The translations under genes were made by a program, and so were the position numbers. From the sequence record MK327941.1: a stretch of DNA of 64,000 nucleotides; one strand, written 5' to 3'. Below the pieces are notes generated by a model. That model had not been told where the DNA came from and ran no database searches. It saw only the letters and a program-made list of their open reading frames with translations. Every line of letters begins with the position of its first letter. Within the stretch, counting starts at the first letter, position 1. Source of the stretch: Escherichia phage vB_EcoM_G37-3. Positions 47,781 to 63,125 of the stretch are shown here, piece by piece.

Positions 47781-48179
47781 TTAAGCCAGTTGAGTGAGTT
47801 TATAAATTGTTTTAAAGCATAGAGCTTTGATATCGTCTAAAACACTCTGTAACGAGCTATCAACATCATTATAAATCTCACTAGCCATTTGCGTTAACTC
47901 TTGCAAATAGGCAATTTCGCTAATCTCCTTGCGGACGACCAACTTTGGCTGATAACGACCAGTGATCCCAATATTGGTTTCAGTGAAATTATCAACCAAT
48001 TCTTGCATTTCAAGATAGAACTCTTCTAGAGCCTTATGTTTTGCATAAGATCCAGGACCAGTTACCCCAAAATGCGCAGAATGCATATAAGTAACACTCA
48101 TCAGACATTCACCGATAAAGCGGTCAACTTTATTAGCCTTTCCCTCTTCGGACGTCTTTAGAAAATCACTGAATTTCAT
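47781..48179 (-). CDS. Dps-like (ferritin superfamily) protein
   Basis: 132 aa from ATG at 48179 behind GGAGA RBS; ferroxidase-type spacing H-x12-H-x15-D-x3-E (SAHFGVTGPGSYAKHKALEEFYLEMQELVDNFTE). Confidence 0.55.
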   Translation of the reverse strand: MKFSDFLKTSEEGKANKVDRFIGECLMSVTYMHSAHFGVTGPGSYAKHKALEEFYLEMQELVDNFTETNIGITGRYQPKLVVRKEISEIAYLQELTQMASEIYNDVDSSLQSVLDDIKALCFKTIYKLTQLA

Positions 48180-48468
48180 GTTCTCGATTCTCCATATTAT
48201 GCAACAGAACAAATTGTTGTGCGGCATATCCCCCCATAATAAAACACTGCCTAGAATCCATACATTTACTACGAGCATACATCTTCATAATATGGGCATG
48301 AAATTTCTGGCTGGTTTCAATGGAAGGAGATATTTTGTTTACATATACTATCATTGCGCCGTCGAAATAATCAGTAAAGTCACCAGTTGGATCATATTGA
48401 TCAGCACTGACACTTCCGACCGCAGTCAAGCATATTGCCGCTGTTAGAGTTTTACGAATAAATGACAT
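48166..48468 (-). CDS. secreted/periplasmic protein (100 aa) with N-terminal signal peptide
   Basis: MSFIRKTLTAAICLTAVGSVSA signal-like N-terminus; GGGGGA RBS. Confidence 0.5.
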   Translation of the reverse strand: MSFIRKTLTAAICLTAVGSVSADQYDPTGDFTDYFDGAMIVYVNKISPSIETSQKFHAHIMKMYARSKCMDSRQCFIMGGYAAQQFVLLHNMENREHEIQ

Positions 48469-48536: not shown

Positions 48537-49133
48537 TTATTTGGTAGTACCGTCAATAAAATGTTTACGGCACACAGAAACATATTTATCCTCTGCGCCG
48601 ACTTCTATTTGAGCACCATCGCGAATAACATTACCCTCTTTATCTACACGAAGGACCATTGTTGCTTTCTTGCCACAATGACAAATACCTTTCATTTCGA
48701 CCAGTTTATCAGCAAGTGCCATCAATGCCGCAGATCCTTCAAATAGATTGCCCTGAAAGTCAGTGCGAAGGCCATAGCACAGTACAGGGATATTTGCATC
48801 ATCGACAAGCGCACACAAGCCTAAAACATGCTCTTTAGTCATAAATTGGGCTTCGTCTACAAAAACTGCATCTGGACGCCATCGATCCGGTCTACGTTTA
48901 CCTAACGATTCACGATAAACCAAATCGAAAAGATCATCCGATTTAGTGAAGGTGATCGCTGGAGCACTTAGACCAATTCGGGAAACAACTTCACTTTCTG
49001 AATATCGATTATCAATCGCTGGCTTAAGAATTAATACTCGCATATCACGTTCGGTATAGTTATAAGCACTTTGTAACAGAGAAGTTGATTTGCCAGCGTT
49101 CATAGATGCATAGTAGAAATATAATTGCGCCAT
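48537..49133 (-). CDS. tk: thymidine kinase
   Basis: 198 aa; P-loop NAGKST, zinc ribbon CHCGKKA...VCRKH; colinear with T4 Tk. Confidence 0.92.
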   Translation of the reverse strand: MAQLYFYYASMNAGKSTSLLQSAYNYTERDMRVLILKPAIDNRYSESEVVSRIGLSAPAITFTKSDDLFDLVYRESLGKRRPDRWRPDAVFVDEAQFMTKEHVLGLCALVDDANIPVLCYGLRTDFQGNLFEGSAALMALADKLVEMKGICHCGKKATMVLRVDKEGNVIRDGAQIEVGAEDKYVSVCRKHFIDGTTK

Positions 49134-49426
49134 TAATTAATCTCCAAAAATCCAGCAAGACCTAAACCGATATAAGTCCAGATACCAATAAAAAAGATGT
49201 TAATGCTCATGACAAGGATAAACCCTTTTAGCGTTTTAGGATATCCGACCCAATATTCCCGACCATCTTCTAACCGGATCAACTTATTTCCTTGCGAGTC
49301 CATATCAACCACAACATGTTTATTTCGAGATTGCAATAGATATTGTTTTACAATCTCCACACCCGCCATAATAACAATAACGAAAATAAAAGTCCACACA
49401 ACAAGATTAATGATAGTCTCAAGCAT
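49133..49426 (-). CDS. membrane protein (97 aa, two TM segments)
   Basis: Hydrophobic N- and C-terminal segments; TAATG overlap with tk. Confidence 0.5.
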   Translation of the reverse strand: MLETIINLVVWTFIFVIVIMAGVEIVKQYLLQSRNKHVVVDMDSQGNKLIRLEDGREYWVGYPKTLKGFILVMSINIFFIGIWTYIGLGLAGFLEIN

Positions 49427-55075: not shown

Positions 55076-55465
55076 TTATTTTGGATCTGGGTATTTGCTG
55101 TGTGGTAGCTGAAAATGAACACCGTCTTTAAACGATACCCAATCCCCACCCCATTCAACAGGAACACCCAATTCTCGACCAGCTTGTTTAAATGCATCCG
55201 CGATCATGCGGTAGTATTTCATGTTCCATGTATCCTTATCTTTCGGATACGCTACAACATCAACCGCGAAACCGTGAAGATGACGAGATTTCATAGTCTT
55301 AGATTTACCTTCCGCAACATATTTCTTTTGCGTTTCTAGACTACGCACACCTTCCGTAATACCAAAATCGACCAGAGTCAGTTCTAACGCACGATGAACG
55401 ACTTTTACCAGATCAGGATGTACACCAACAAGCCGATCTTTGCTTCTTTGAGATAATTTAAACAT
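55076..55465 (-). CDS. endolysin, peptidase M15 family (L-alanyl-D-glutamate peptidase type)
   Basis: 129 aa; zinc-binding motifs SRHLHGFAVDV and DGVHFQL; AGGGGGTG RBS. Confidence 0.75.
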   Translation of the reverse strand: MFKLSQRSKDRLVGVHPDLVKVVHRALELTLVDFGITEGVRSLETQKKYVAEGKSKTMKSRHLHGFAVDVVAYPKDKDTWNMKYYRMIADAFKQAGRELGVPVEWGGDWVSFKDGVHFQLPHSKYPDPK

Positions 55466-55493
55466 TATTCACCCCCTTTGTGAGTGATAATAT

Positions 55494-55685
55494 TTAGATT
55501 CCGGCGATCCTGCATATAGTTCTTGTATTAGCACCAATCAGGATCGCATTAACGACAACCATTCCCCAATCAACCCACTGATTATTATAAATGCTAAACC
55601 CGTTTGCAAGACCAAATACAAGCATTCCGGTACACATACTCAGAGCAATAATCAACATCACGGTAAAACCAAATGCAAATCTCAT
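55494..55685 (-). CDS. small membrane protein (63 aa)
   Basis: Two hydrophobic segments; immediately upstream of endolysin. Confidence 0.45.
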   Translation of the reverse strand: MRFAFGFTVMLIIALSMCTGMLVFGLANGFSIYNNQWVDWGMVVVNAILIGANTRTICRIAGI

Positions 55686-55686
55686 A

Positions 55687-55902
55687 TTATTTTCCTTTTC
55701 TCTGTTTACGTTTATAAAAGTAATACATTACCTCATCGCGTCCGGTGATCCAACATGCTAGGGCGGTAAACAGGTTTACAATTCCCAACACACCTACTGA
55801 CGCGGCGCTGTCAACAGACATAGGAACAGTAAAGGCCATAGCTAACATAGCAACGCCACAAATGACATTAAGCACCATTATAATAAGACCGAAGAAAACC
55901 AT
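55687..55902 (-). CDS. small membrane protein (about 71 aa)
   Basis: Internal ATG at 55902 behind GGAGGA RBS; two to three hydrophobic segments, basic C-terminus. Confidence 0.45.
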   Translation of the reverse strand: MVFFGLIIMVLNVICGVAMLAMAFTVPMSVDSAASVGVLGIVNLFTALACWITGRDEVMYYFYKRKQRKGK

Positions 55903-55904
55903 TG

Positions 55905-56084
55905 TCAATCCTCCGACACAAGAAAACCAACAATCACGCCAGTGATAAGACATGATGCACCGCTAATCAGACAACCCGCGCCCATAGTTTCCCACCAGAT
56001 CAGAGAAGCGACAATAACACAGAATCCCCATACTACCGCAATCACAACATAGGCAAGGGTCGCCCAAAACATATATTTGTTCAT
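55905..56084 (-). CDS. small membrane protein (59 aa)
   Basis: ATGA overlap with upstream gene; two hydrophobic segments. Confidence 0.45.
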   Translation of the reverse strand: MNKYMFWATLAYVVIAVVWGFCVIVASLIWWETMGAGCLISGASCLITGVIVGFLVSED

Positions 56085-56269
56085 AATAAATCCCATTCAC
56101 CAAACAAATAAGAAAAAAGCCATATCAACAGAAACGAGGCAATTGATCCGGCAAGCAAAATGATATTAGAGAATCCGCCGTCTATCCAGGCGACAAAACA
56201 GAATACGCCAGTATAGAAGCATAAACCCATTACAAAGCATACTATAAGCAACCATAGACAAAACTCCAT
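56081..56269 (-). CDS. small membrane protein (62 aa)
   Basis: GGAGGG RBS; hydrophobic throughout. Confidence 0.45.
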   Translation of the reverse strand: MEFCLWLLIVCFVMGLCFYTGVFCFVAWIDGGFSNIILLAGSIASFLLIWLFSYLFGEWDLL

Positions 56270-56321
56270 AGAAAGCCCTCCAGCGAGATAAATTAGTGCG
56301 GGTAGTGGAATGTACTACCCG

Positions 56322-56489
56322 CTTTGTTAATCAACGCAGAGCTTCTTCTAGCGCGATCCCAAACCATCCACAAACAACGCCCATACAGACAGCTACAAGA
56401 AGATTCATTCTCTCTTTAGGGATCATTGCAATCATAACAACAACCATACAGAAAGCCATTACCATTGAAGTTAACATTTGTTCAACCAT
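56322..56489 (-). CDS. small membrane protein (55 aa)
   Basis: Below track cutoff; AAGGTG RBS; hydrophobic. Confidence 0.35.
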
Positions 56490-56491
56490 TA

Positions 56492-56830
56492 TCACACCTT
56501 TAAAGTCATAGACGCATAAACATTAATGCCAGGCCAGTTAGGATCGCAATTATACTCAACATCCCACAAATAAAGCGGTTTAGATGTATCAGCCAAGTTT
56601 TTAAAATCTTCTACCCACATTTCAAGGCTATATGATGGATAAACTAGGCTATCATATCCGCCGTAACGTTGGCCTACTGGTCGGTCAGTAAAAACTACCT
56701 CAAGATCCGGTAATTCTTTTTCAAGGATAACCGCCAGCGCATAAATCAGACGGTCTTCCTTGTTACGCTGCCGAAGGACCGTTGTCAATTGGTTTTTCTG
56801 GTTCACTAGCAAGCACCTACACATTTTCAC
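56492..56830 (-). CDS. hypothetical protein (112 aa)
   Basis: ORF on the common strand. Confidence 0.45.
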   Translation of the reverse strand: MKMCRCLLVNQKNQLTTVLRQRNKEDRLIYALAVILEKELPDLEVVFTDRPVGQRYGGYDSLVYPSYSLEMWVEDFKNLADTSKPLYLWDVEYNCDPNWPGINVYASMTLKV

Positions 56831-57083
56831 AGAATGAAATTTTCACAGACACAATTTTACCATAAGTGAAGAATGAATATACATTATCGAGATATTCAAC
56901 GTCACCTACAATCACATCAAACTGCGGATCAGCCACTGCCGCAACATATTCTACCAGTTCATCAAGAGAATGCAACTTAATTTCATCAATTCGGCTGTAT
57001 TTGGTTGCATCTTTGATTTTAAAACCACGTTCTTTCAGCTTATCAATCAGAATTTCACGCGGAGTTTCAAACAGTTTGCTCAT
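56817..57083 (-). CDS. hypothetical protein (88 aa)
   Basis: GAGGATTATATT leader. Confidence 0.45.
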   Translation of the reverse strand: MSKLFETPREILIDKLKERGFKIKDATKYSRIDEIKLHSLDELVEYVAAVADPQFDVIVGDVEYLDNVYSFFTYGKIVSVKISFCENV

Positions 57084-57104
57084 AATATAATCCTCACATT
57101 AAAT

Positions 57105-57302
57105 CTAAAATTTGTTAACGACGAATTGCATAATTAGACTAATCACAAACATTGCAAACCAAGTATAAATGCAACAGATAAAAGCTACATACAATTCAAT
57201 CTGGTCAGAGAATACACCGGGTAAAAGCATTAGCAAAATAACAACAGTAAAGACGCTAGCGATACCCGCAACAAAACCAATATCATTTTTACTAATCGTC
57301 AT
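57105..57302 (-). CDS. small membrane protein (65 aa)
   Basis: GGTGA RBS before ATG at 57302; two hydrophobic segments. Confidence 0.45.
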   Translation of the reverse strand: MTISKNDIGFVAGIASVFTVVILLMLLPGVFSDQIELYVAFICCIYTWFAMFVISLIMQFVVNKF

Positions 57303-57502
57303 CAAGTCACCGTTTTGTAAAGAAACACAATAAAATCCAAGACAAGAAAGACAGTGTAAATGATCATCGTCAAGACAGTAAACACTGTCAAATTTTCATC
57401 GTTAGTTAATTCATAGTCGCCCATCCATACAATCACAAGATATAGCATTGAAAGAATGGAAGCACCTACGAAGTTAAAAAAAACATATTCTTGAGCGTCA
57501 TA

Positions 57503-57685
57503 TTAACAACCATCGCGGCTTAAGTCAACAGCAATTGCATACAGCATAATGAATATGCTAGCAGATCCGAGAATCAATGCACCATCACATTTTGAAACTC
57601 GCTCATCAAAATGTAACATTATCCATCCGAGGATGTTAAAGGCGCAGACCGCGCCTATGTTCGCTAACCAATTAATCTTTTTCAT
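57503..57685 (-). CDS. small membrane protein (60 aa)
   Basis: AAGGT RBS; hydrophobic segments. Confidence 0.45.
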   Translation of the reverse strand: MKKINWLANIGAVCAFNILGWIMLHFDERVSKCDGALILGSASIFIMLYAIAVDLSRDGC

Positions 57686-57693
57686 AATATACC

Positions 57694-58020
57694 TTAGAAA
57701 GAAACAGTTTTCAAGAAATCCAGATTTTTAGTACCGAAAACAGAAAAGTAGTGTTTTCCTTTTTCGGTTTTAGAGAAAGCGATTGTCTTCTCTACATGGT
57801 GACGGAAGCCAGACAGACGATCACCCAGGTCAAGGCGGCAAGCGTAAGTAGTGCCGTTTTCGAAAGTAACCTCGATTTGAGTTTTGTCATATTCGCTTTC
57901 ATAGGCTTTTGCTGCCGCGTCCTGTGCTTTACGCTCGAAGTCTTCGAAGTGGAATACTTCGTTTGCGTTAGCGAATACAGAAGATTCAGAGAAGATAACT
58001 TTAACAGATACTGGTTTCAT
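57694..58020 (-). CDS. hypothetical protein (108 aa)
   Basis: AAGGAGTATCAAA leader after an early promoter. Confidence 0.5.
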   Translation of the reverse strand: MKPVSVKVIFSESSVFANANEVFHFEDFERKAQDAAAKAYESEYDKTQIEVTFENGTTYACRLDLGDRLSGFRHHVEKTIAFSKTEKGKHYFSVFGTKNLDFLKTVSF

Positions 58021-58043
58021 TTTGATACTCCTTAGTAGTTCGT

Positions 58044-58073
58044 GTTTCGTTTCGATGGGTGTATTATGCTATA
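58044..58073 (-). repeat. PeSL core repeat copy 1 (GTTTCGTTTCGATGGGTGTATTATGCTATA)
   Basis: Near-identical 30-mer recurs at about 59022 and 61012; approximate. Confidence 0.6.
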
Positions 58074-58091
58074 CACCCTCTCGCGTGTCAA
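58063..58091 (-). promoter_or_regulatory. early promoter (PeSL-type) TTGACA-N17-CATAAT
   Basis: -10 inside GGGTGTA/TACACCC inverted repeat; approximate. Confidence 0.55.
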
Positions 58092-58099
58092 CAACTTTT

Positions 58100-58288
58100 T
58101 TAGTCTTTTTTCATAATTTCTAGAGCAGTTTCTACAGCACCTTTCCAACCTTCCCACATAATGGACATAGTAAGGAAGTTAAAGCACCCGCAGGAATCAA
58201 CCTTTTTAGAGATAAACCATTCTACAAACGCTTCGCTCATACCATGCTCTTTAGCGGATTCGCGTAATTGTTCAATTTGGTCTTCCAT
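58100..58288 (-). CDS. hypothetical protein (62 aa)
   Basis: ORF on the common strand. Confidence 0.4.
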   Translation of the reverse strand: MEDQIEQLRESAKEHGMSEAFVEWFISKKVDSCGCFNFLTMSIMWEGWKGAVETALEIMKKD

Positions 58289-58310
58289 AGTATCACCTCA
58301 ACACTTAACG

Positions 58311-58505
58311 TTATTCAAACTCAAACGGTCTATTCAACCTATTGTAAAAGTACATATAACAAGCAAAATTATGCTTTGGCTGTACCGTATCAGATAGACA
58401 CGCTTTTACAGCCTCGCGGTCCGATGGGTCTACACCCTCAGCTTTAAGTAATGCTAAAATCTGGTTATAGCGTACTCTTAGTTGTACTAATGGTTTATCC
58501 CCCAT
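58311..58505 (-). CDS. hypothetical protein (64 aa)
   Basis: ORF on the common strand. Confidence 0.4.
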   Translation of the reverse strand: MGDKPLVQLRVRYNQILALLKAEGVDPSDREAVKACLSDTVQPKHNFACYMYFYNRLNRPFEFE

Positions 58506-58514
58506 ATTACCCCC

Positions 58515-58742
58515 TTATAGTTGATCAGCAATGTATGCGGTGCATTTGCGGAGTTTAGCCATAGCACCACCTTTCATGTCGCTTGCGCCTACAATGTTCA
58601 TGATCTCTAAGCGATCAGCCGGATTCAGTCTAGTAGCCAAGATCTGGTTAGCCAGTTCCATTTTACCCATCTGCGGTTCCATCTCAAACATTTCACGCTC
58701 AAAGTCGATAATTTCTTTTGCTGCGTCTTTAAAGTTAATCAT
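58515..58742 (-). CDS. hypothetical protein (75 aa)
   Basis: GGGAGGACCAAA leader after an early promoter. Confidence 0.45.
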   Translation of the reverse strand: MINFKDAAKEIIDFEREMFEMEPQMGKMELANQILATRLNPADRLEIMNIVGASDMKGGAMAKLRKCTAYIADQL

Positions 58743-58771
58743 TTTGGTCCTCCCGTTTCGTTGATGGTTGT

Positions 58772-58800
58772 ATTGTAGGGGAGTTATCCTCCCCTGTCAA
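58772..58800 (-). promoter_or_regulatory. early promoter (PeSL-type) TTGACA-N17-TACAAT
   Basis: Spacer hairpin GGGGAGGATAACTCCCC; approximate. Confidence 0.5.
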
Positions 58801-58808
58801 CACTTTTA

Positions 58809-58994
58809 TCAGAAATATGCAATATAGTTTGCCAGTCCTACAGAGTCATCATTCGGCATTGCTTTTACCGCCAGTTCAAACCCTGCTTCAACTTTCTGTT
58901 TAGCGGATTCTTCGTTATAACCCCAGATGACCAGAATAGCTACTACGTTTTCTTTGCTTACTGCTTTCAGTGCTTTAGTGATGCGACGTGCCAT
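58809..58994 (-). CDS. hypothetical protein (61 aa)
   Basis: ACGGAGAATCAAAT leader after an early promoter. Confidence 0.45.
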   Translation of the reverse strand: MARRITKALKAVSKENVVAILVIWGYNEESAKQKVEAGFELAVKAMPNDDSVGLANYIAYF

Positions 58995-59021
58995 AATTTG
59001 ATTCTCCGTTTAAGAAAGTGT

Positions 59022-59050
59022 GTTTCGTTTCGATGGGTGTATTATGCTAT
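59022..59050 (-). repeat. PeSL core repeat copy 2
   Basis: Same 30-mer as at 58044 and 61012; approximate. Confidence 0.6.
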
Positions 59051-59069
59051 AGGCGTGATCTGGTGTCAA
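59041..59069 (-). promoter_or_regulatory. early promoter (PeSL-type) TTGACA-N17-CATAAT
   Basis: Hexamers on minus strand; approximate. Confidence 0.55.
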
Positions 59070-59094
59070 CAACTTTTTTAAAAAATTTTAGGCA

Positions 59095-59266
59095 ATAAAA
59101 AAGCCACTCCGAAGAGTGGCTTATAGGGAAGGTAGCGAATCTTCCTTATCTCCAACCTGCTAGCGGCCTAGCAAGTGAATGCTTTAGCGTACCGGATCAC
59201 CCCCATACGCTGTAATAAATGCGGCTAGGTGACGTCCAAATCATTCTAACCGCGCTGTCTTTAGTT
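59095..59266 (-). ncRNA. candidate structured small RNA (about 170 nt) behind a late promoter
   Basis: No ORF longer than 14 codons; four predicted hairpins (GCGGTTAG/CTAGCCGC, AGCGTA/TACGCT, GCTAG/CTAGC, GGAAG/CTTCC); ends in terminator GCCACTCTTCGGAGTGGC plus T-run. Confidence 0.4.
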
Positions 59267-59271
59267 CACTA

Positions 59272-59490
59272 TTATTTATATCGCTTTCTCTCGCGACGTT
59301 TTTGATCTTCTTCCTTGATAGAGTTAAACGCATCAAAAAGACACATGACACTAATAATAAACATAACCGTATTTTCTACGATATCCCACGGCTTCGCATC
59401 GGTACAGATTCCCCAAACTGTAAGAAATGCAAATAGTGCAGAAGAGATCACAAGCATGATACTTGCTAAGATATAAAAAGTCATTTTCAT
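59272..59490 (-). CDS. small membrane protein (72 aa)
   Basis: Two hydrophobic segments, basic C-terminus; ATGA overlap with upstream gene. Confidence 0.45.
   Translation of the reverse strand: MKMTFYILASIMLVISSALFAFLTVWGICTDAKPWDIVENTVMFIISVMCLFDAFNSIKEEDQKRRERKRYK
59273..59280 (-). promoter_or_regulatory. T4-type late promoter TATAAATA
   Basis: Exact TATAAATA on minus strand overlapping the last codons (Y-K-stop) of the upstream gene. Confidence 0.5.
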
Positions 59491-59669
59491 GGTTTTACCT
59501 CAATTCTTCGATATTCATCACACATCCACGCAGTAAGCAAGAATCCCAACACATAAGCAACAAAATACGTTAATGCTTCTTCTGGTTTCGTGCTATGTAT
59601 CATCAGTAAACCAGCGAGAACGGTCTTAACAATTGCATTTAAAATAATTAACCACGCAAATAATTTCAT
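59487..59669 (-). CDS. small membrane protein (about 60 aa)
   Basis: Internal ATG at 59669 forms ATGA overlap with upstream stop. Confidence 0.45.
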   Translation of the reverse strand: MKLFAWLIILNAIVKTVLAGLLMIHSTKPEEALTYFVAYVLGFLLTAWMCDEYRRIEVKP

Positions 59670-59890
59670 CGTTTGCCCCATTTCGGTCGAGTCTTTTCAA
59701 ACTTATACATTCCGTAACAATCTCGAATCATCCACGTAACAAGAGCACCAGTCAACACAGACAATACACAGAAGAAGTAAAACGGTCCGGTTGCATTATC
59801 AACATGAGCAAGCCAGGTAAAGAAAACACATGCAAGGAATGTAAAGAACATCATAAAACACAAGAAAGCAAAATATTTTATGCTACTCAT
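59666..59890 (-). CDS. small membrane protein (about 74 aa)
   Basis: Track start reads TTG; internal ATG at 59890 preferred; two hydrophobic segments. Confidence 0.4.
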   Translation of the reverse strand: MSSIKYFAFLCFMMFFTFLACVFFTWLAHVDNATGPFYFFCVLSVLTGALVTWMIRDCYGMYKFEKTRPKWGKR

Positions 59891-59993
59891 AGCGCCACCA
59901 TACAACAGATCATAAGAAAACCCAACGCAATAAGAATTGCATCAAATTTAGTGAACTCAGATCCACCTATCAACATCATTCGTTCCTGTTCAT

Positions 59994-60236
59994 TCATAGA
60001 TCACAGAGCCATCTTAAAGCACCACATAAAGCGATCAAAAGACTAGGTATAAACGAGACTAAAACAAGACTACAAAAATCATCTAAGGTAACGCCGGAAT
60101 AGCTACCTACTGTAACAACACCGATCATCAGACACAGAAAGAAAACAAATGCAATCAGAAACAAAGTATTGCTAAACAGTTTAGTGATCATTAGACACCC
60201 CACGACGATCAATTTCAAAAACTTTTTTACCATCAA
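59994..60236 (-). CDS. small membrane protein (start uncertain)
   Basis: Hydrophobic ORF overlapping upstream ORF; track start reads TTG. Confidence 0.4.
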   Translation of the reverse strand: MMVKKFLKLIVVGCLMITKLFSNTLFLIAFVFFLCLMIGVVTVGSYSGVTLDDFCSLVLVSFIPSLLIALCGALRWLCDL

Positions 60237-60384
60237 CGAAGCATGTCACAACTGCCTCGTTGACTTCCGCAAATTGTTGTGTTACCCACTTAAGGTCAGA
60301 GCGAAACAATGTTCTATTAATAACAAATGTTTTACCTTTCTTATCCATACCCATAAATTTTGCTTTAACCATATCCAATTCCAT
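60181..60384 (-). CDS. hypothetical protein (67 aa)
   Basis: ORF on the common strand. Confidence 0.4.
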   Translation of the reverse strand: MELDMVKAKFMGMDKKGKTFVINRTLFRSDLKWVTQQFAEVNEAVVTCFVDGKKVFEIDRRGVSNDH

Positions 60385-60393
60385 ATTATCACC

Positions 60394-60552
60394 TTATTTG
60401 CTAATCGCTAAACCCAATCCGAAGAGAGCACCCGATGCTACAGTATACCCGAAAGTTTCAAAGGAAGTAAAGATATCTAAGCCGCCAGCTAACAGAGTTG
60501 CTGTAAACAGAGTACCAGCTACGAACATAAAAGTTTTACCGATAAATTTCAT
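60394..60552 (-). CDS. small membrane protein (52 aa)
   Basis: Below track cutoff; AAGGAGAATCAAA leader after an early promoter; Gly-rich hydrophobic. Confidence 0.35.
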   Translation of the reverse strand: MKFIGKTFMFVAGTLFTATLLAGGLDIFTSFETFGYTVASGALFGLGLAISK

Positions 60553-60583
60553 TTTGATTCTCCTTTCGTTTGTTTGTGGGGGT

Positions 60584-60612
60584 ATCTTACTACCCCCGTT
60601 TCATGTTGTCAA
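60584..60612 (-). promoter_or_regulatory. early promoter (PeSL-type) TTGACA-N17-TAAGAT
   Basis: -10 inside GGGGGTA/TACCCCC inverted repeat; approximate. Confidence 0.5.
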
Positions 60613-60618
60613 CTATTT

Positions 60619-60993
60619 TTAAGAATATTTTACTTCGTCTACAATATCTTTCATGACATTGATTTCCATTCCGGTCAGAACACGTTGGAACATGTGCTGC
60701 ACATACGCTTTCAGGTATTCATTTGATGGCTTGCTATCGAAAGTCTTTTTAGTGTAGTAGTCATCACCGAAAGCTACTGTAATTACATTTTCGTCGTCGT
60801 TCCAAGCGATATAAGCAAATTTGCCGTTATCCCAGAAGCGAGCACTAATTGCTACTTTTGTTGAATCGAATCCTACTTCGCTGTGAGATTCAAGAACTAC
60901 TTGCGTGCCAGTTTCTTTATGAATGTAGTAGCGGGATACTAAGTCAAAGTTACGGGTGTAGTGACATTCAAATTTATCTTTAAACATCATCAT
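60619..60993 (-). CDS. hypothetical protein (124 aa)
   Basis: ATG at 60993 behind TAGGAGAATCAAA leader; upstream part of track ORF overlaps the promoter. Confidence 0.5.
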   Translation of the reverse strand: MMMFKDKFECHYTRNFDLVSRYYIHKETGTQVVLESHSEVGFDSTKVAISARFWDNGKFAYIAWNDDENVITVAFGDDYYTKKTFDSKPSNEYLKAYVQHMFQRVLTGMEINVMKDIVDEVKYS

Positions 60994-61011
60994 TTTGATT
61001 CTCCTAAGTGT

Positions 61012-61041
61012 GTTTCGTTTCGATATGTGCATTATGCTATA
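61012..61041 (-). repeat. PeSL core repeat copy 3
   Basis: Same 30-mer as at 58044 and 59022 with two substitutions; approximate. Confidence 0.6.
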
Positions 61042-61059
61042 GTCGTTTATGGTTGTCAA
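61031..61059 (-). promoter_or_regulatory. early promoter (PeSL-type) TTGACA-N17-CATAAT
   Basis: Hexamers on minus strand; approximate. Confidence 0.55.
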
Positions 61060-61102
61060 CACCTAAAAACAAAAAACCCCGAAAATTTTTCGGGGTATAA
61101 AA

Positions 61103-61573
61103 TTACAGTTTGGTCGTCCACTCCAGGTCTAGATCTTCGACATACTCATGAGATCGGACAATCTCTAAATCGAACTCTAGGTCAGTGCCAAATTTACGCG
61201 CACCAACATCATAAGAAAGCGTGATATGCGGTACATATTCAGGATAATCCCACGTCGCACCTAAAGCAGTGCCGATATCGTGTCTGAATTGCATGTAGTC
61301 GCTTTCAAATGCCAACACAAGTGCATTAGTACCGGATTGAGTTTCAAACACTTTCAGATGACACAGAGAGCCTAAGAACTTCTCCCCTTCTTCTGGGATA
61401 AACGGAACATAGACACGAGAATATAAGATAGTGCTATGCAGTTTATCACGAGGAACGGCATTAGGCAGATCGTAGAACTCCTGCAATTTTTCAATGCGGT
61501 CTAGTGTATCCTCAGTGAATTTAACCGCCGCATATGTACCTTTAACGGATTCTCTAAACGGGGTCATAATCAA
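61103..61573 (-). CDS. 57B: 2H phosphoesterase, T4 gene 57B (Acb1) homolog
   Basis: 156 aa; two H-x-[TS]-x motifs (HSTIL, HITLS); sits downstream of 57A and gene 1 as in T4. Confidence 0.7.
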   Translation of the reverse strand: MIMTPFRESVKGTYAAVKFTEDTLDRIEKLQEFYDLPNAVPRDKLHSTILYSRVYVPFIPEEGEKFLGSLCHLKVFETQSGTNALVLAFESDYMQFRHDIGTALGATWDYPEYVPHITLSYDVGARKFGTDLEFDLEIVRSHEYVEDLDLEWTTKL

Positions 61574-61836
61574 GCCTCCGTGATCAGTTCTACTTCCTCT
61601 TCTGCGTCTTCCGCTGCTTCGTCTTTAGGGAGAAGTGCTTTCACTTCTTCGACAATAGCATCAAGGGAAACAGTCCCGTTTTCGTCTGGCTGAATACCCA
61701 GAATGCGTACCAGTTCCATCAATACACGCTCACGATCTTTCAGTTGGCCTTCTAAGAATGCGGCCTTTTCTTGAGTGTCAAACAGACGTACTTTCAGGAC
61801 ATTAATCATTTGTTCATGCTGATTGGACATATTCAC
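61570..61836 (-). CDS. 57A: tail fibre assembly chaperone gp57A-like coiled-coil protein
   Basis: 88 aa, heptad-rich acidic coiled coil; between gene 1 and 57B. Confidence 0.55.
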   Translation of the reverse strand: MNMSNQHEQMINVLKVRLFDTQEKAAFLEGQLKDRERVLMELVRILGIQPDENGTVSLDAIVEEVKALLPKDEAAEDAEEEVELITEA

Positions 61837-61862
61837 ATCTCCTACTTGTTGATAACTTTTTA

Positions 61863-62519
61863 TTAAATGTTCGCGAGAATCGCGCTTTCAAATTCTTCTA
61901 ATGTACCATTATTTATGATAATGGTTTCACCGTCAATAGGCAAAATTCCTTTTTCGGTGGAGTGAGTCGATACAATACCAGTATCACGATGAATATGCAA
62001 CACCTTAGCACCCATAGCACGCATGAGAGCAATTTCAATAGGCTGACGCACATCAACCACTACAAAATACCCTTCTTCATTTTTGCGCTTCATAAACTCA
62101 TTCACGAAGAGATTACACCAATAAAGCGGATTGATCAAGTTAACCATTATATCAGTACCGAGAGTGGTTAACATGAGACGAATAGACCAGACGTTATTAT
62201 GTTTTTCGCCGATCTCATTAACGACCTTGTAAATCTCAGCCAGACGATCACAAGTAAAGGAACTACCGCCATACTTCGAATCTAGCATAAGCAGACACTG
62301 AATAAACCACTTATGCGCGGTATAGGTATCAATACCTAGATCGGCTTCTCTGTCACGCCCCAACCCGTCAAAGTCAAGATAAGTCAGACCTAAGTCTGGT
62401 TGACATTCGCACAATATTTCTTTGATCGGTGCTGCCAGTTGATAACTATGTCCATCAATGATTAACGCGGCAGTGTCTTTTCCTACTCGCTTTTTACCAC
62501 AAAGTGCAATCAATTTCAT
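61863..62519 (-). CDS. 1: deoxynucleoside monophosphate kinase (gene 1)
   Basis: 218 aa; P-loop GKKRVGKDT; colinear with T4 gp1. Confidence 0.88.
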   Translation of the reverse strand: MKLIALCGKKRVGKDTAALIIDGHSYQLAAPIKEILCECQPDLGLTYLDFDGLGRDREADLGIDTYTAHKWFIQCLLMLDSKYGGSSFTCDRLAEIYKVVNEIGEKHNNVWSIRLMLTTLGTDIMVNLINPLYWCNLFVNEFMKRKNEEGYFVVVDVRQPIEIALMRAMGAKVLHIHRDTGIVSTHSTEKGILPIDGETIIINNGTLEEFESAILANI

Positions 62520-62534
62520 TATATAAGCCTCTTA

Positions 62535-63125
62535 TTACTTTCTAAAAGCAGGGTGCATAGCTTTAATACCTTCCACCCTCTGACGATCCGCCGCCTGAAT
62601 TGCTGGGCGAGGAACGATCAGTTGACCATCACGTTCAATGCTCATTGTTTTAAAGGGAAGAATTGCAGTACACACCAGAGATTCATGCATATCATCGGTG
62701 TATGTTAACTCAAGTTCCCCCAATTGTGAACACCAACAACCATAAAAGTTAAAAGTGCACACAATGTTACGTCGTTCGTTGTCCATCATGTGAACTTGAA
62801 CGGCTTCCGGCATTGAATCCTTCCACGCAGTGGAGTTACCGTTATTGTAGTCTACTATAGAAAGCATCCATGTGTAAAGGTTTAGATAGCTTTCCAAATG
62901 CTCATCGACAATAAACCGGACTACCAACGGGTCAAACTCCACATGACTAGACGGATAATCAGCGACCGCCAAACCATATTGTCCAGCAACTTGCTTAGTC
63001 GGTGGAATGGTTATAGCCGGAAGTGTAACACCTTGAGCATTTAAAGTAAAGCCTTTTGTTAGTTGTCCATCTGGAATATTGATCTGCCAGTTGCTGGGGT
63101 TAGCATAGTTAAAGAGATTAGACAT
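62535..63125 (-). CDS. hypothetical protein (196 aa), possibly gp3-like tail completion protein by position
   Basis: Lies where T4 has gene 3 next to gene 1; late-promoter-like TAATAAATA upstream; no motif recognised. Confidence 0.35.
   Translation of the reverse strand: MSNLFNYANPSNWQINIPDGQLTKGFTLNAQGVTLPAITIPPTKQVAGQYGLAVADYPSSHVEFDPLVVRFIVDEHLESYLNLYTWMLSIVDYNNGNSTAWKDSMPEAVQVHMMDNERRNIVCTFNFYGCWCSQLGELELTYTDDMHESLVCTAILPFKTMSIERDGQLIVPRPAIQAADRQRVEGIKAMHPAFRK

Follow-up and report, generated by a model that had tools for sequence, protein, structure and literature searches.

The window analyzed here is a 64,000-nucleotide stretch of Escherichia phage vB_EcoM_G37-3 (MK327941.1), and the subject of this report is an array of minigenes within it that encode small hydrophobic proteins. 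Over positions 55400-62600, the window is 97-98.6% identical along its full length to 55 complete genomes of Krischvirus, a genus of RB49-like, T4-related coliphages with members including RB49, Phi1, JSE, GEC-3S, and W115. All genes of this region lie on the minus strand and follow one another, in the direction of transcription, as gene 3, gene 1, 57A, 57B, ORF125, ORF124, dmd, ORF122-118, ORF117-114, ORF113-107, ORF106-103, and the endolysin gene. The stretch between gp57B (Acb1) and the endolysin is a hyperplastic region, and the span flagged in a preliminary description of the window (57105-60552) is part of it. That description listed seven open reading frames (ORFs), all of which are present on the minus strand where it placed them and correspond to ORF110, 112, 118, 119, 120, 122, and 124 of RB49 and Phi1. 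With the ORFs that it only suspected, the set is made up of RB49 ORF110, 111, 112, 118-122, and 124. The records of relatives already carry these ORFs, as "hypothetical protein" in RB49 and Phi1 and as "putative membrane protein" in W115. The minigenes, with their predicted transmembrane (TM) segments, are as follows:

60394..60552, minus strand: ORF124, 52 amino acids (aa), first gene of its predicted operon, a predicted glycine-rich, weakly hydrophobic hairpin with a strong ribosome-binding site (RBS; AAGGAGAATCAAAATG); PHROG 16462, E = 2.7e-35
59994..60191, minus strand: ORF122, 65 aa, two TM segments; PHROG 17225; the fastest-evolving member
59887..59997, minus strand: ORF121, 36 aa, one TM segment at the C-terminal end and an acidic N-terminus; PHROG 15282, E = 6.6e-28
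59666..59890, minus strand: ORF120, 74 aa, with a basic tail after its two TM segments; PHROG 15290
59487..59669, minus strand: ORF119, 60 aa, two TM segments; PHROG 15717
59272..59490, minus strand: ORF118, 72 aa, predicted to close its operon; it begins with MKM, has two TM segments, and ends in a highly charged C-tail (KEEDQKRRERKRYK)
57503..57685, minus strand: ORF112, 60 aa, two TM segments; PHROG 16425, E = 7.9e-45
57302..57501, minus strand: ORF111 (65 aa with two TM segments in RB49), frameshifted here, leaving a 48-codon remnant at 57302..57448
57105..57302, minus strand: ORF110, 65 aa, two TM segments; two allele classes
55494..56489, minus strand: ORF107-103, five hydrophobic proteins of 52-71 aa, endolysin-proximal and outside the flagged span

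Some of the reading frames required adjustment. The ORF at 59994..60236 stands, but its start does not. We place it at the ATG at 60191 rather than at the TTG at 60236 because the resulting 65-aa form fits both the annotation of relatives and the full-length PHROG profile. With the TTG start, the gene would share 56 nt with dmd; with the ATG start, the overlap is 11 nt, at the end of dmd. Two shorter ORFs had been suspected but not placed with confidence. The one near 59900..59979 is ORF121, which has its own PHROG and is annotated in RB49, Makalu_003, Whisky, and MIZ3. The one near 57310..57424 is also real, as ORF111, but what is found here is the frameshift remnant of a 65-codon gene, and it matches PHROG 21837 over profile positions 18-65 only. 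The ORF107-103 block holds the same kind of gene as the flagged span: the five proteins are unrelated, two TM segments are predicted in four of them and one in ORF103, and their nonsynonymous/synonymous ratios (omega) range from 0.13 to 0.40.

Coding potential and selection

The window was scanned for ATG-initiated ORFs of 30-100 aa with a maximum hydropathy of at least 2.0. Of the 26 found on the minus strand, 14 fall within 5.2 kb (55494-60233), where 2.1 would be expected (binomial p ~2e-9), and the 8 on the plus strand are scattered. Genes annotated in relatives account for 13 of the 14 clustered ORFs. The scan ORF at 57792-57902 was rejected as an out-of-frame artefact inside ORF113. The preliminary description had called the density of tiny membrane proteins unusual, and it is indeed the highest we found, with 13 genes per 5.2 kb against at most 9 scan hits in T4, about 6 of which are annotated (motA.1, 52.1, ac, ndd.3, ndd.4, and ndd.5). 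The remaining 102 kb of RB49 holds almost no such small hydrophobic genes. The Krischvirus array is thus the densest example examined and holds nearly all such genes of its genome.

Selection was analyzed in the nine flagged genes across ten related genomes. Every minigene ORF stays open across the ten relatives and is intact in seven metagenomic loci as well. Variable sites are distributed over codon positions 1, 2, and 3 as 50, 30, and 86, and the called frame has an omega of about 0.29, compared with 0.87 and 1.32 for the two other frames. The corresponding ratio for soluble neighbors is 0.14, and the minigenes are under real purifying selection that is somewhat weaker than that acting on these neighbors. 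Each of the nine proteins also has its own PHROG match, which runs end to end in all but the partial ORF111 remnant. Together, the open frames, codon-position bias, in-frame omega, and PHROG matches exclude the concern, raised at the outset, that the hydrophobicity is a frame artefact of AT-rich sequence.

It could still be argued that the hydrophobic ORFs are non-functional, either as by-products of T-rich sequence or as decaying remnants. The base composition has this flavor, as T makes up 45% of codon position 2 and 41% of position 3. ORF111 is frameshifted in G37-3 and lost in others, and gene callers differ between records on ORF121, ORF122, and ORF111. Neither by-products nor remnants, however, would be expected to show a frame-specific substitution pattern, to stay intact in 10 genomes and 7 metagenomic loci within a block kept in 58 of 58 genomes, or to carry Shine-Dalgarno (SD)-like motifs ahead of most starts. 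Frame-specific selection already largely refutes this alternative, and we consider it essentially excluded. The minigenes are, by all signs in their sequence, real conserved genes that are presumably translated.

Predicted membrane topology

Kyte-Doolittle analysis supports the predicted membrane character of the proteins, with two TM-like segments in ORF110, 112, 118, 119, 120, and 122, where the maximum 19-residue hydropathy is 2.2-3.0. ORF124 has a weaker, glycine-rich hydrophobic pair with a maximum of 1.64. The description of the products as almost purely hydrophobic was overstated, as their grand average of hydropathy is 0.32-1.67 and the C-tails of ORF118 (+8/-4) and ORF120 (+7/-2) are strongly charged. 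An AlphaFold2 model of ORF118 shows a two-helix hairpin (H2-29/H34-71) with a mean predicted local distance difference test score of 85.

The distribution of charge is much the same from one protein to the next. The N-termini are short and carry one or two Lys each, the inter-helix loops are 8-18 residues long, acidic, and nearly without Lys or Arg, and several of the C-tails are basic. Summed over eight hairpins, the loops contain 4 K+R and 19 D+E, and the termini 33 and 13 (Fisher p = 2.6e-5). Under the positive-inside rule, such a split points to N-in/C-in hairpins with a small acidic periplasmic loop. From hydropathy, charge distribution, and one AlphaFold2 model, we infer that most of the minigene proteins are N-in/C-in helical hairpins at the inner membrane.

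Small proteins of this shape have precedents in how they insert and act. M13 procoat-type proteins usually insert without Sec, via YidC and the proton-motive force. As predicted for the minigene products, M13 procoat, AcrZ, and MgrB are small hairpins or single helices whose acidic loop is translocated and which insert without Sec, and regulators of the AcrZ and MgrB type act by binding larger membrane proteins. The minigene products have no homology to them, and the analogy covers how they probably insert and act, and no more.

Operon organization and PeSL cassettes

The intergenic repeats of this region are PeSL cassettes, in which a G+C-rich stem-loop with a sigma70-type promoter is followed by a conserved leader, an SD sequence, and an ATG. 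Arbiol et al. (2010, PMC2839356) described about 50 PeSLs per genome in Phi1 and RB49 and found that the examples they tested drive transcription very strongly and terminate it efficiently. The features that define the transcription units around the minigenes are, in the direction of transcription:

61103..61567, minus strand: gp57B, the Acb1 anti-CBASS nuclease (CBASS, cyclic oligonucleotide-based antiphage signaling system; Pfam Acb1, E = 1.5e-51), upstream boundary of the hyperplastic region
60584..60612, minus strand: predicted early promoter, TTGACA-17-TAAGAT (score 10/12), with a GGGGGTA/TACCCCC stem-loop over the -10 element; predicted to drive ORF124-dmd-ORF118
60181..60384, minus strand: dmd, a soluble antitoxin-type counter-defense gene inside operon 1
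59095..59271, minus strand: predicted structured non-coding RNA of 177 nt, from the ORF118 stop to the PeSL terminator hairpin (59122-59101)
59041..59122, minus strand: PeSL cassette with terminator hairpin and T-run, TTGACA-17-CATAAT promoter, and the ORF117 leader (repeat D1)
58063..58102, minus strand: PeSL promoter, TTGACA-17-CATAAT, with a stem-loop over the -10 element; the D1 reference copy, predicted to drive ORF113-112-111-110 onward
57694..58020, minus strand: ORF113, a soluble protein with an LPD25 domain (Pfam LPD25, E = 3.3e-14), first gene of operon 2

The hallmarks of PeSLs, namely a promoter with AT-rich upstream sequence, a G+C-rich stem-loop, and a repeated leader, are all found here. 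Five sigma70-like promoters score 10-11 of 12 (61059-61031, 60612-60584, 59069-59041, 58800-58772, and 58091-58063), each with 17-nt spacing and A-rich upstream sequence. Their stems either overlap the -10 element (GGGTGTAT/ATACACCC, GGGGGTA/TACCCCC) or sit between the -35 and -10 elements (GGGGAG/CTCCCC). Two repeat families are present in three copies each, D1 of 61 nt and D2, which spans the RBS and ATG. Hairpins with T-runs at 61096-61076 and 59122-59101 are putative terminators. On this basis, operon 1 is predicted to run through ORF124-dmd-ORF122-121-120-119-118 and then through a 177-nt structured stretch to the terminator hairpin at 59122-59101. Operon 2, comprising ORF113 (LPD25)-112-111-110 and downstream genes, is predicted to start from the promoter at 58091-58063.

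Expression of the minigenes is predicted to be early and by the host RNA polymerase, because the promoters are of the sigma70 type and the sole late motif of the region lies downstream of the minigenes. This T4 late-promoter motif, TATAAATA, is found at 59280-59273, at the ORF118 stop codon. It is one of three in the window, and a scan of the region found none upstream of the minigenes. Taking the coding, topology, and promoter evidence together, we hold with high confidence that the minigenes encode real early membrane proteins.

The preliminary description had also noted that several of the genes are joined by ATGA overlaps. There are four such joins in succession (122/121, 121/120, 120/119, and 119/118), with ORF121 carrying one at both ends, and the ORF111/110 junction is TGATG. 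The overlaps suggest that these minigenes of 36-74 aa are translationally coupled. It is possible that the products of ORF122-121-120-119-118, perhaps with ORF124, assemble into one hetero-oligomeric channel or platform. Successive overlaps of this kind would allow coupled and balanced synthesis, the gene order of ORF118-124 does not change among the 58 Krischvirus genomes or in metagenomic relatives, and the TM helices of ORF120 are invariant. However, the members evolve at strongly different rates (omega 0.13-0.59), and ATGA overlaps are common throughout T4-type genomes anyway. We therefore regard a single complex as unlikely, and since it concerns stoichiometry, it is compatible with the biological role favored below.

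The structured stretch at 59095-59271 folds into five hairpins (-64.6 kcal/mol, z = -4.3), and its conservation among ten relatives is 97.6-99.1%. No Rfam family was matched, and there is no similarity to T4 rnaC or rnaD. The stretch could be a separate late small RNA or the 3' untranslated region of the operon. A type I toxin-antitoxin pair, consisting of a hydrophobic peptide and an antisense small RNA, was considered and rejected, as this RNA shares the strand of ORF118 and lies wholly downstream of that gene.

The array has much in common with the published PeSL ORFan modules (PMC2839356; Comeau et al. 2014, PMC4122927), which occur in the same genus and have the same cassette element upstream of small ORFans. 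The cassettes account for the operon boundaries and modular turnover. The two papers differ in treating the ORFans as anonymous cargo, and neither contains a relevant mention of "membrane," "transmembrane," or "hydrophobic" for the cargo of the region. A further difference from the PeSL modules is that the ORF110 allele swap, described below, is gene-precise and not flanked by PeSLs. Our literature search found no paper that discusses the membrane nature or function of these ORFs. What was already known, then, is the annotation of the minigenes, the PeSL cassette architecture, and the existence of analogous clusters in T4. What is new here is the frame-specific selection, the uniform predicted topology, and the predicted operon map with dmd embedded. 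Further new points are the restriction to one genus, the existence of two ORF110 allele classes, and the near-total concentration of small membrane genes in one region.

Conservation and turnover

The members of the array differ widely in how they evolve. ORF118, 120, and 124 are 96-100% identical at the amino acid level with omega values of 0.13-0.16 (0.13 for ORF124), and the helices and loop of ORF120 are invariant across relatives. Variation in ORF119 is concentrated in TM1. ORF122 has an omega of 0.59, and 20 of its 65 positions are variable, mainly in TM2 and the C-terminus. ORF110 occurs as two allele classes that share 31-38% protein identity and no DNA match, although the flanks are 95-99% identical. 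The second class is found in Makalu_003 (L004:2103-2303), in Whisky (L005:2107-2301), and at the loci numbered L016-L020, and it has the same length and two-helix topology, with a conserved TM2 motif, IY.W.A.FV.S.IM.

ORF111 shows outright loss. A T run at 57476-57483 frameshifts the gene, being T8 here, T6 in RB49, Phi1, E26, MIZ3, and kvi, and T5 in W115. The gene is frameshifted in G37-3 and W115 and deleted in Makalu_003 and Whisky. The gene may truly be a pseudogene here, the tract may be phase-variable, or the T8 run may be a sequencing error. Because of the ORF111 losses, the ORF110 allele classes, and the omega of ORF122, the array is seen to be partly dispensable and partly fast-evolving.

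This mixture bears on whether the minigenes instead encode host-takeover effectors, which would act on inner-membrane machinery such as transporters, respiration, division, or proteases, much as small regulatory membrane proteins of bacteria do, and would optimize the infected cell rather than counter competitors or defenses. The same anatomy of an early promoter and small hairpins would serve that purpose equally, and the 96-100% conservation of ORF118, 120, and 124 at omega 0.13-0.16 fits an invariant host target. On the other hand, the ORF110 alleles, ORF111 losses, and ORF122 omega are easier to explain by variable targets, the neighbors of known function are counter-defense genes, and no homology supports any specific target. 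We consider host takeover unlikely.

Distribution and homology

The minigene proteins are genus-restricted ORFans that are unrelated to one another. In an all-against-all blastp search of the array members (16-sequence database), no pair scored below E = 0.007 except the ORF110 alleles. A family of tandem-duplicate paralogues was accordingly rejected, as the members share no mutual similarity and each has a separate PHROG. Searches of Pfam, NCBIfam, PADLOC, and PDB sequences gave nothing above threshold, and the PHROGs are unannotated and genus-level.

When the concatenated proteins were compared with 50,697 phage records by tblastn, only 58 Krischvirus genomes matched, and the ORF118-124 block is present in all 58. 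Among 5.8e9 proteins, the ORF110 profile retrieved 13 clusters, and ORF124 and ORF120 retrieved 3 each, all of them Krischvirus-like. An exhaustive HMMER search of 1.84e9 representatives with ORF118 returned a single 50%-identity cluster. The longest contigs with matches are 163-176 kb, which is the size of a Krischvirus genome, and every locus examined, including 175-kb metagenomic genomes, has the same synteny with an array that is 80-100% identical. Because the metagenomic relatives are no more distant than this, no deeper evolutionary comparison is possible.

Comparison with phage T4

T4-type phages are known to carry groups of very small membrane ORFs in non-essential early regions, and the array is not unprecedented in this respect. 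Such clusters in T4 are 52.1-ac-ndd.2 to ndd.6 and e.2-e.4 with trna.4, which are likewise made up of unrelated predicted membrane ORFs of 28-130 aa in early non-essential regions. They differ in that they share no homology with the array, which is denser (13 versus about 6 genes per 5.2 kb) and is predicted to be co-transcribed with dmd. The small membrane proteins of T4 that were compared (Imm, 55.8, trna.4, motA.1, 52.1, Ac, and ndd.3-5) have no homology to the array, with bit scores below 12. The syntenic interval of T4, between e and 57B, contains e.2-e.4 and trna.4 (all annotated as "predicted membrane protein"), the small stable RNAs rnaC and rnaD, tRNA genes, and ipI. Between gene 52 and rIIB of RB49 (161776-162806; L021:21777-22807), three ORFs of about 100-120 aa replace T4 52.1-ac-stp-ndd-ndd.x. 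The mini-membrane-ORF cluster of T4 therefore has no Krischvirus counterpart at that position.

In T4, superinfection exclusion is brought about by Imm and Sp, which are made early in infection (PMC7677548). T4 Imm is an 83-aa, non-essential protein with two TM segments that excludes secondary phage DNA (PMC7677548), and the minigene products are alike in small size, predicted early expression, and predicted two-helix membrane topology. They are unlike Imm and Spackle in sequence and position, T4 imm being located between genes 42 and 43. Direct comparison of T4 Imm with the minigenes gave no Pfam match and blastp and phmmer bit scores below 4. No homologues of Imm, Imm.1, Sp, or TifA were found in the Krischvirus genome by tblastn (T4 Imm had no match at E <=0.1). 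T4 Spackle gave one marginal tblastn match (E = 0.05), but this falls within the gene for the gp41 helicase and was dismissed as spurious.

Lysis genes

RB49 has a T holin (RB49p254; tblastn E = 6e-67), both spanins, and an M15 peptidase endolysin. In the window, a 100-aa protein with an N-terminal signal-like or signal-anchor-release-like segment is encoded at 48166-48468 (minus strand), between tk and an rI.-1 homologue, which is the position of rI in T4. No similarity to RI was found for this protein by tblastn, and it is probably a positional analogue of the antiholin gene rI. Just upstream of tk, at 49133-49426 (minus strand), a 97-aa protein has hydrophobic segments at both ends.

The T holin, spanins, rI analogue, and endolysin already cover the functions of lysis, which is relevant to the possibility that the array functions in lysis control. 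In that case one or more minigenes, ORF118 and ORF120 above all, would work alongside the M15 endolysin as class II holins, pinholins, or antiholins and tune the timing of lysis or its inhibition. Like class II holins and pinholins such as S21 of phage 21, ORF118 and ORF120 are proteins of 60-75 aa with two TM segments, a predicted N-in/C-in topology, and a charged tail. ORF118, at 72 aa, also has a conserved MKM start reminiscent of the holin dual start, and ORF120 is similar in build. ORF120 has a weak, sub-threshold Pfam match to Phage_holin_3_6 (E = 0.076, 13.5 bits against a cutoff of 28.4), and in place of T4 E, Krischvirus has as its endolysin an M15 peptidase of foreign origin. Several observations argue the other way. 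The genus keeps its T holin, both spanins, and the rI positional analogue, and no holin family model reaches threshold. Unlike typical class II holin genes, the array is not adjacent to the endolysin, from which it is separated by about 4 kb with PeSL terminators between. The minigene promoters are of the early sigma70 type, predicting early expression, and no TATAAATA motif lies upstream. An M-x-M start would be expected by chance in about 1 of 14 minigenes at a few percent each. A role in lysis is, in our view, quite unlikely. The preliminary description named two phenotypes without settling on a function; of these, the evidence suggests that exclusion is more plausible than lysis inhibition.

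Possible roles in exclusion and counter-defense

We favor the reading that the minigenes encode real early inner-membrane hairpins that are dispensable and participate in superinfection immunity and/or counter-defense, and we give this combined statement a probability of roughly 45%. The functional class alone, exclusion or counter-defense, is proposed with modest confidence. In this scheme, the minigenes would be transcribed by the host RNA polymerase immediately after infection. Their products would enter the inner membrane as N-in/C-in hairpins, exposing a short acidic loop to the periplasm. Insertion would probably be independent of Sec and rely on YidC and the proton-motive force, and once in place the hairpins would bind membrane-embedded targets. 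One possible role is superinfection immunity of the T4 Imm type, which is considered because the genus has no Imm or Spackle homologue. Alternatively, the hairpins may neutralize membrane-acting host abortive-infection effectors, a reading that draws on the fact that the neighbors of known function, Acb1 and Dmd, are counter-defense genes. As gp57B matches Acb1, the hyperplastic region starts with a proven counter-defense gene. The dmd product matches Pfam Dmd (E = 8.4e-15, 55.3 bits against a cutoff of 27) and is 45% identical to T4 Dmd, and the LPD25 protein ORF113 lies in the same neighborhood.

Several points weigh against this reading. The argument from neighbors is weak, as hyperplastic regions also hold unrelated genes, and the missing Imm and Sp homologues do not show that the phage performs exclusion. 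Informative homology for any function is absent across Pfam, NCBIfam, PADLOC, PDB, PHROG, and the 5.8e9 and 1.84e9 protein sets. In general terms, ORF118 and ORF120 could also pass for class II holins, and the strong conservation of ORF118, 120, and 124 fits housekeeping better than an arms race. Early timing, for its part, rests on promoter consensus and on published assays of other PeSL cassettes.

A bolder version of the exclusion and counter-defense reading is that the hairpins form a battery, each neutralizing a different membrane effector (CBASS or Pycsar TM proteins, RexB-like channels) or blocking the entry of rival DNA. If true, the array would form one early counter-defense island with Acb1 and Dmd, and the ORF110 alleles and ORF111 losses would reflect an ongoing arms race. 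This version is speculative, and we think it improbable as it stands.

Small hydrophobic phage ORFs are routinely left as "hypothetical," and the handful with a studied role, such as T4 Imm, RI, and Ac, govern access to infection or the time of lysis. Krischvirus phages are widely isolated for phage therapy, and the array offers a compact, deletable set beside two proven counter-defense genes for probing membrane minigenes. Should a role in exclusion or against abortive infection be borne out, the known counter-defense repertoire would extend to membrane-embedded inhibitors, and the result would bear on phage cocktails, whose related members must not exclude each other. If the minigenes give no phenotype, the region would be ordinary hyperplastic-region cargo.

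Neighboring genes and minor observations

Many records label the gp57B gene "RNA ligase" or "conserved hypothetical." The soluble ORF115-117 (58306-59007), which lie between the two minigene blocks, share 72-79% DNA identity with T1-like siphoviruses of about 50 kb, among them JMPW1/2, pSf-1/2, tunus, and GaoY1-9D, and ORF117 belongs to DUF7421. This likeness indicates horizontal exchange between unrelated coliphage groups.

Further changes are seen toward the endolysin. A 1-nt indel in Whisky joins ORF106 to ORF105 as a single ORF of 101 aa (L005:965-1270). On a metagenomic contig (L017; ENA ERZ27235393 k99_1567), ORF108 is followed at 1382-1400 by the baseplate genes gp7 and gp6, PAAR, and gp5 on the opposite strand, and ORF107-103 and the endolysin are missing, which reflects either a large rearrangement or a chimeric assembly. 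In the window itself, codon 89 of ORF109 (56817-56819, minus strand) carries a GAG to TAG amber change that is unique to it and shortens the product from 106 to 88 aa. The same change alters the GGAGG upstream of the overlapping GTG start of ORF108, and all five relatives checked have GAG at this codon.

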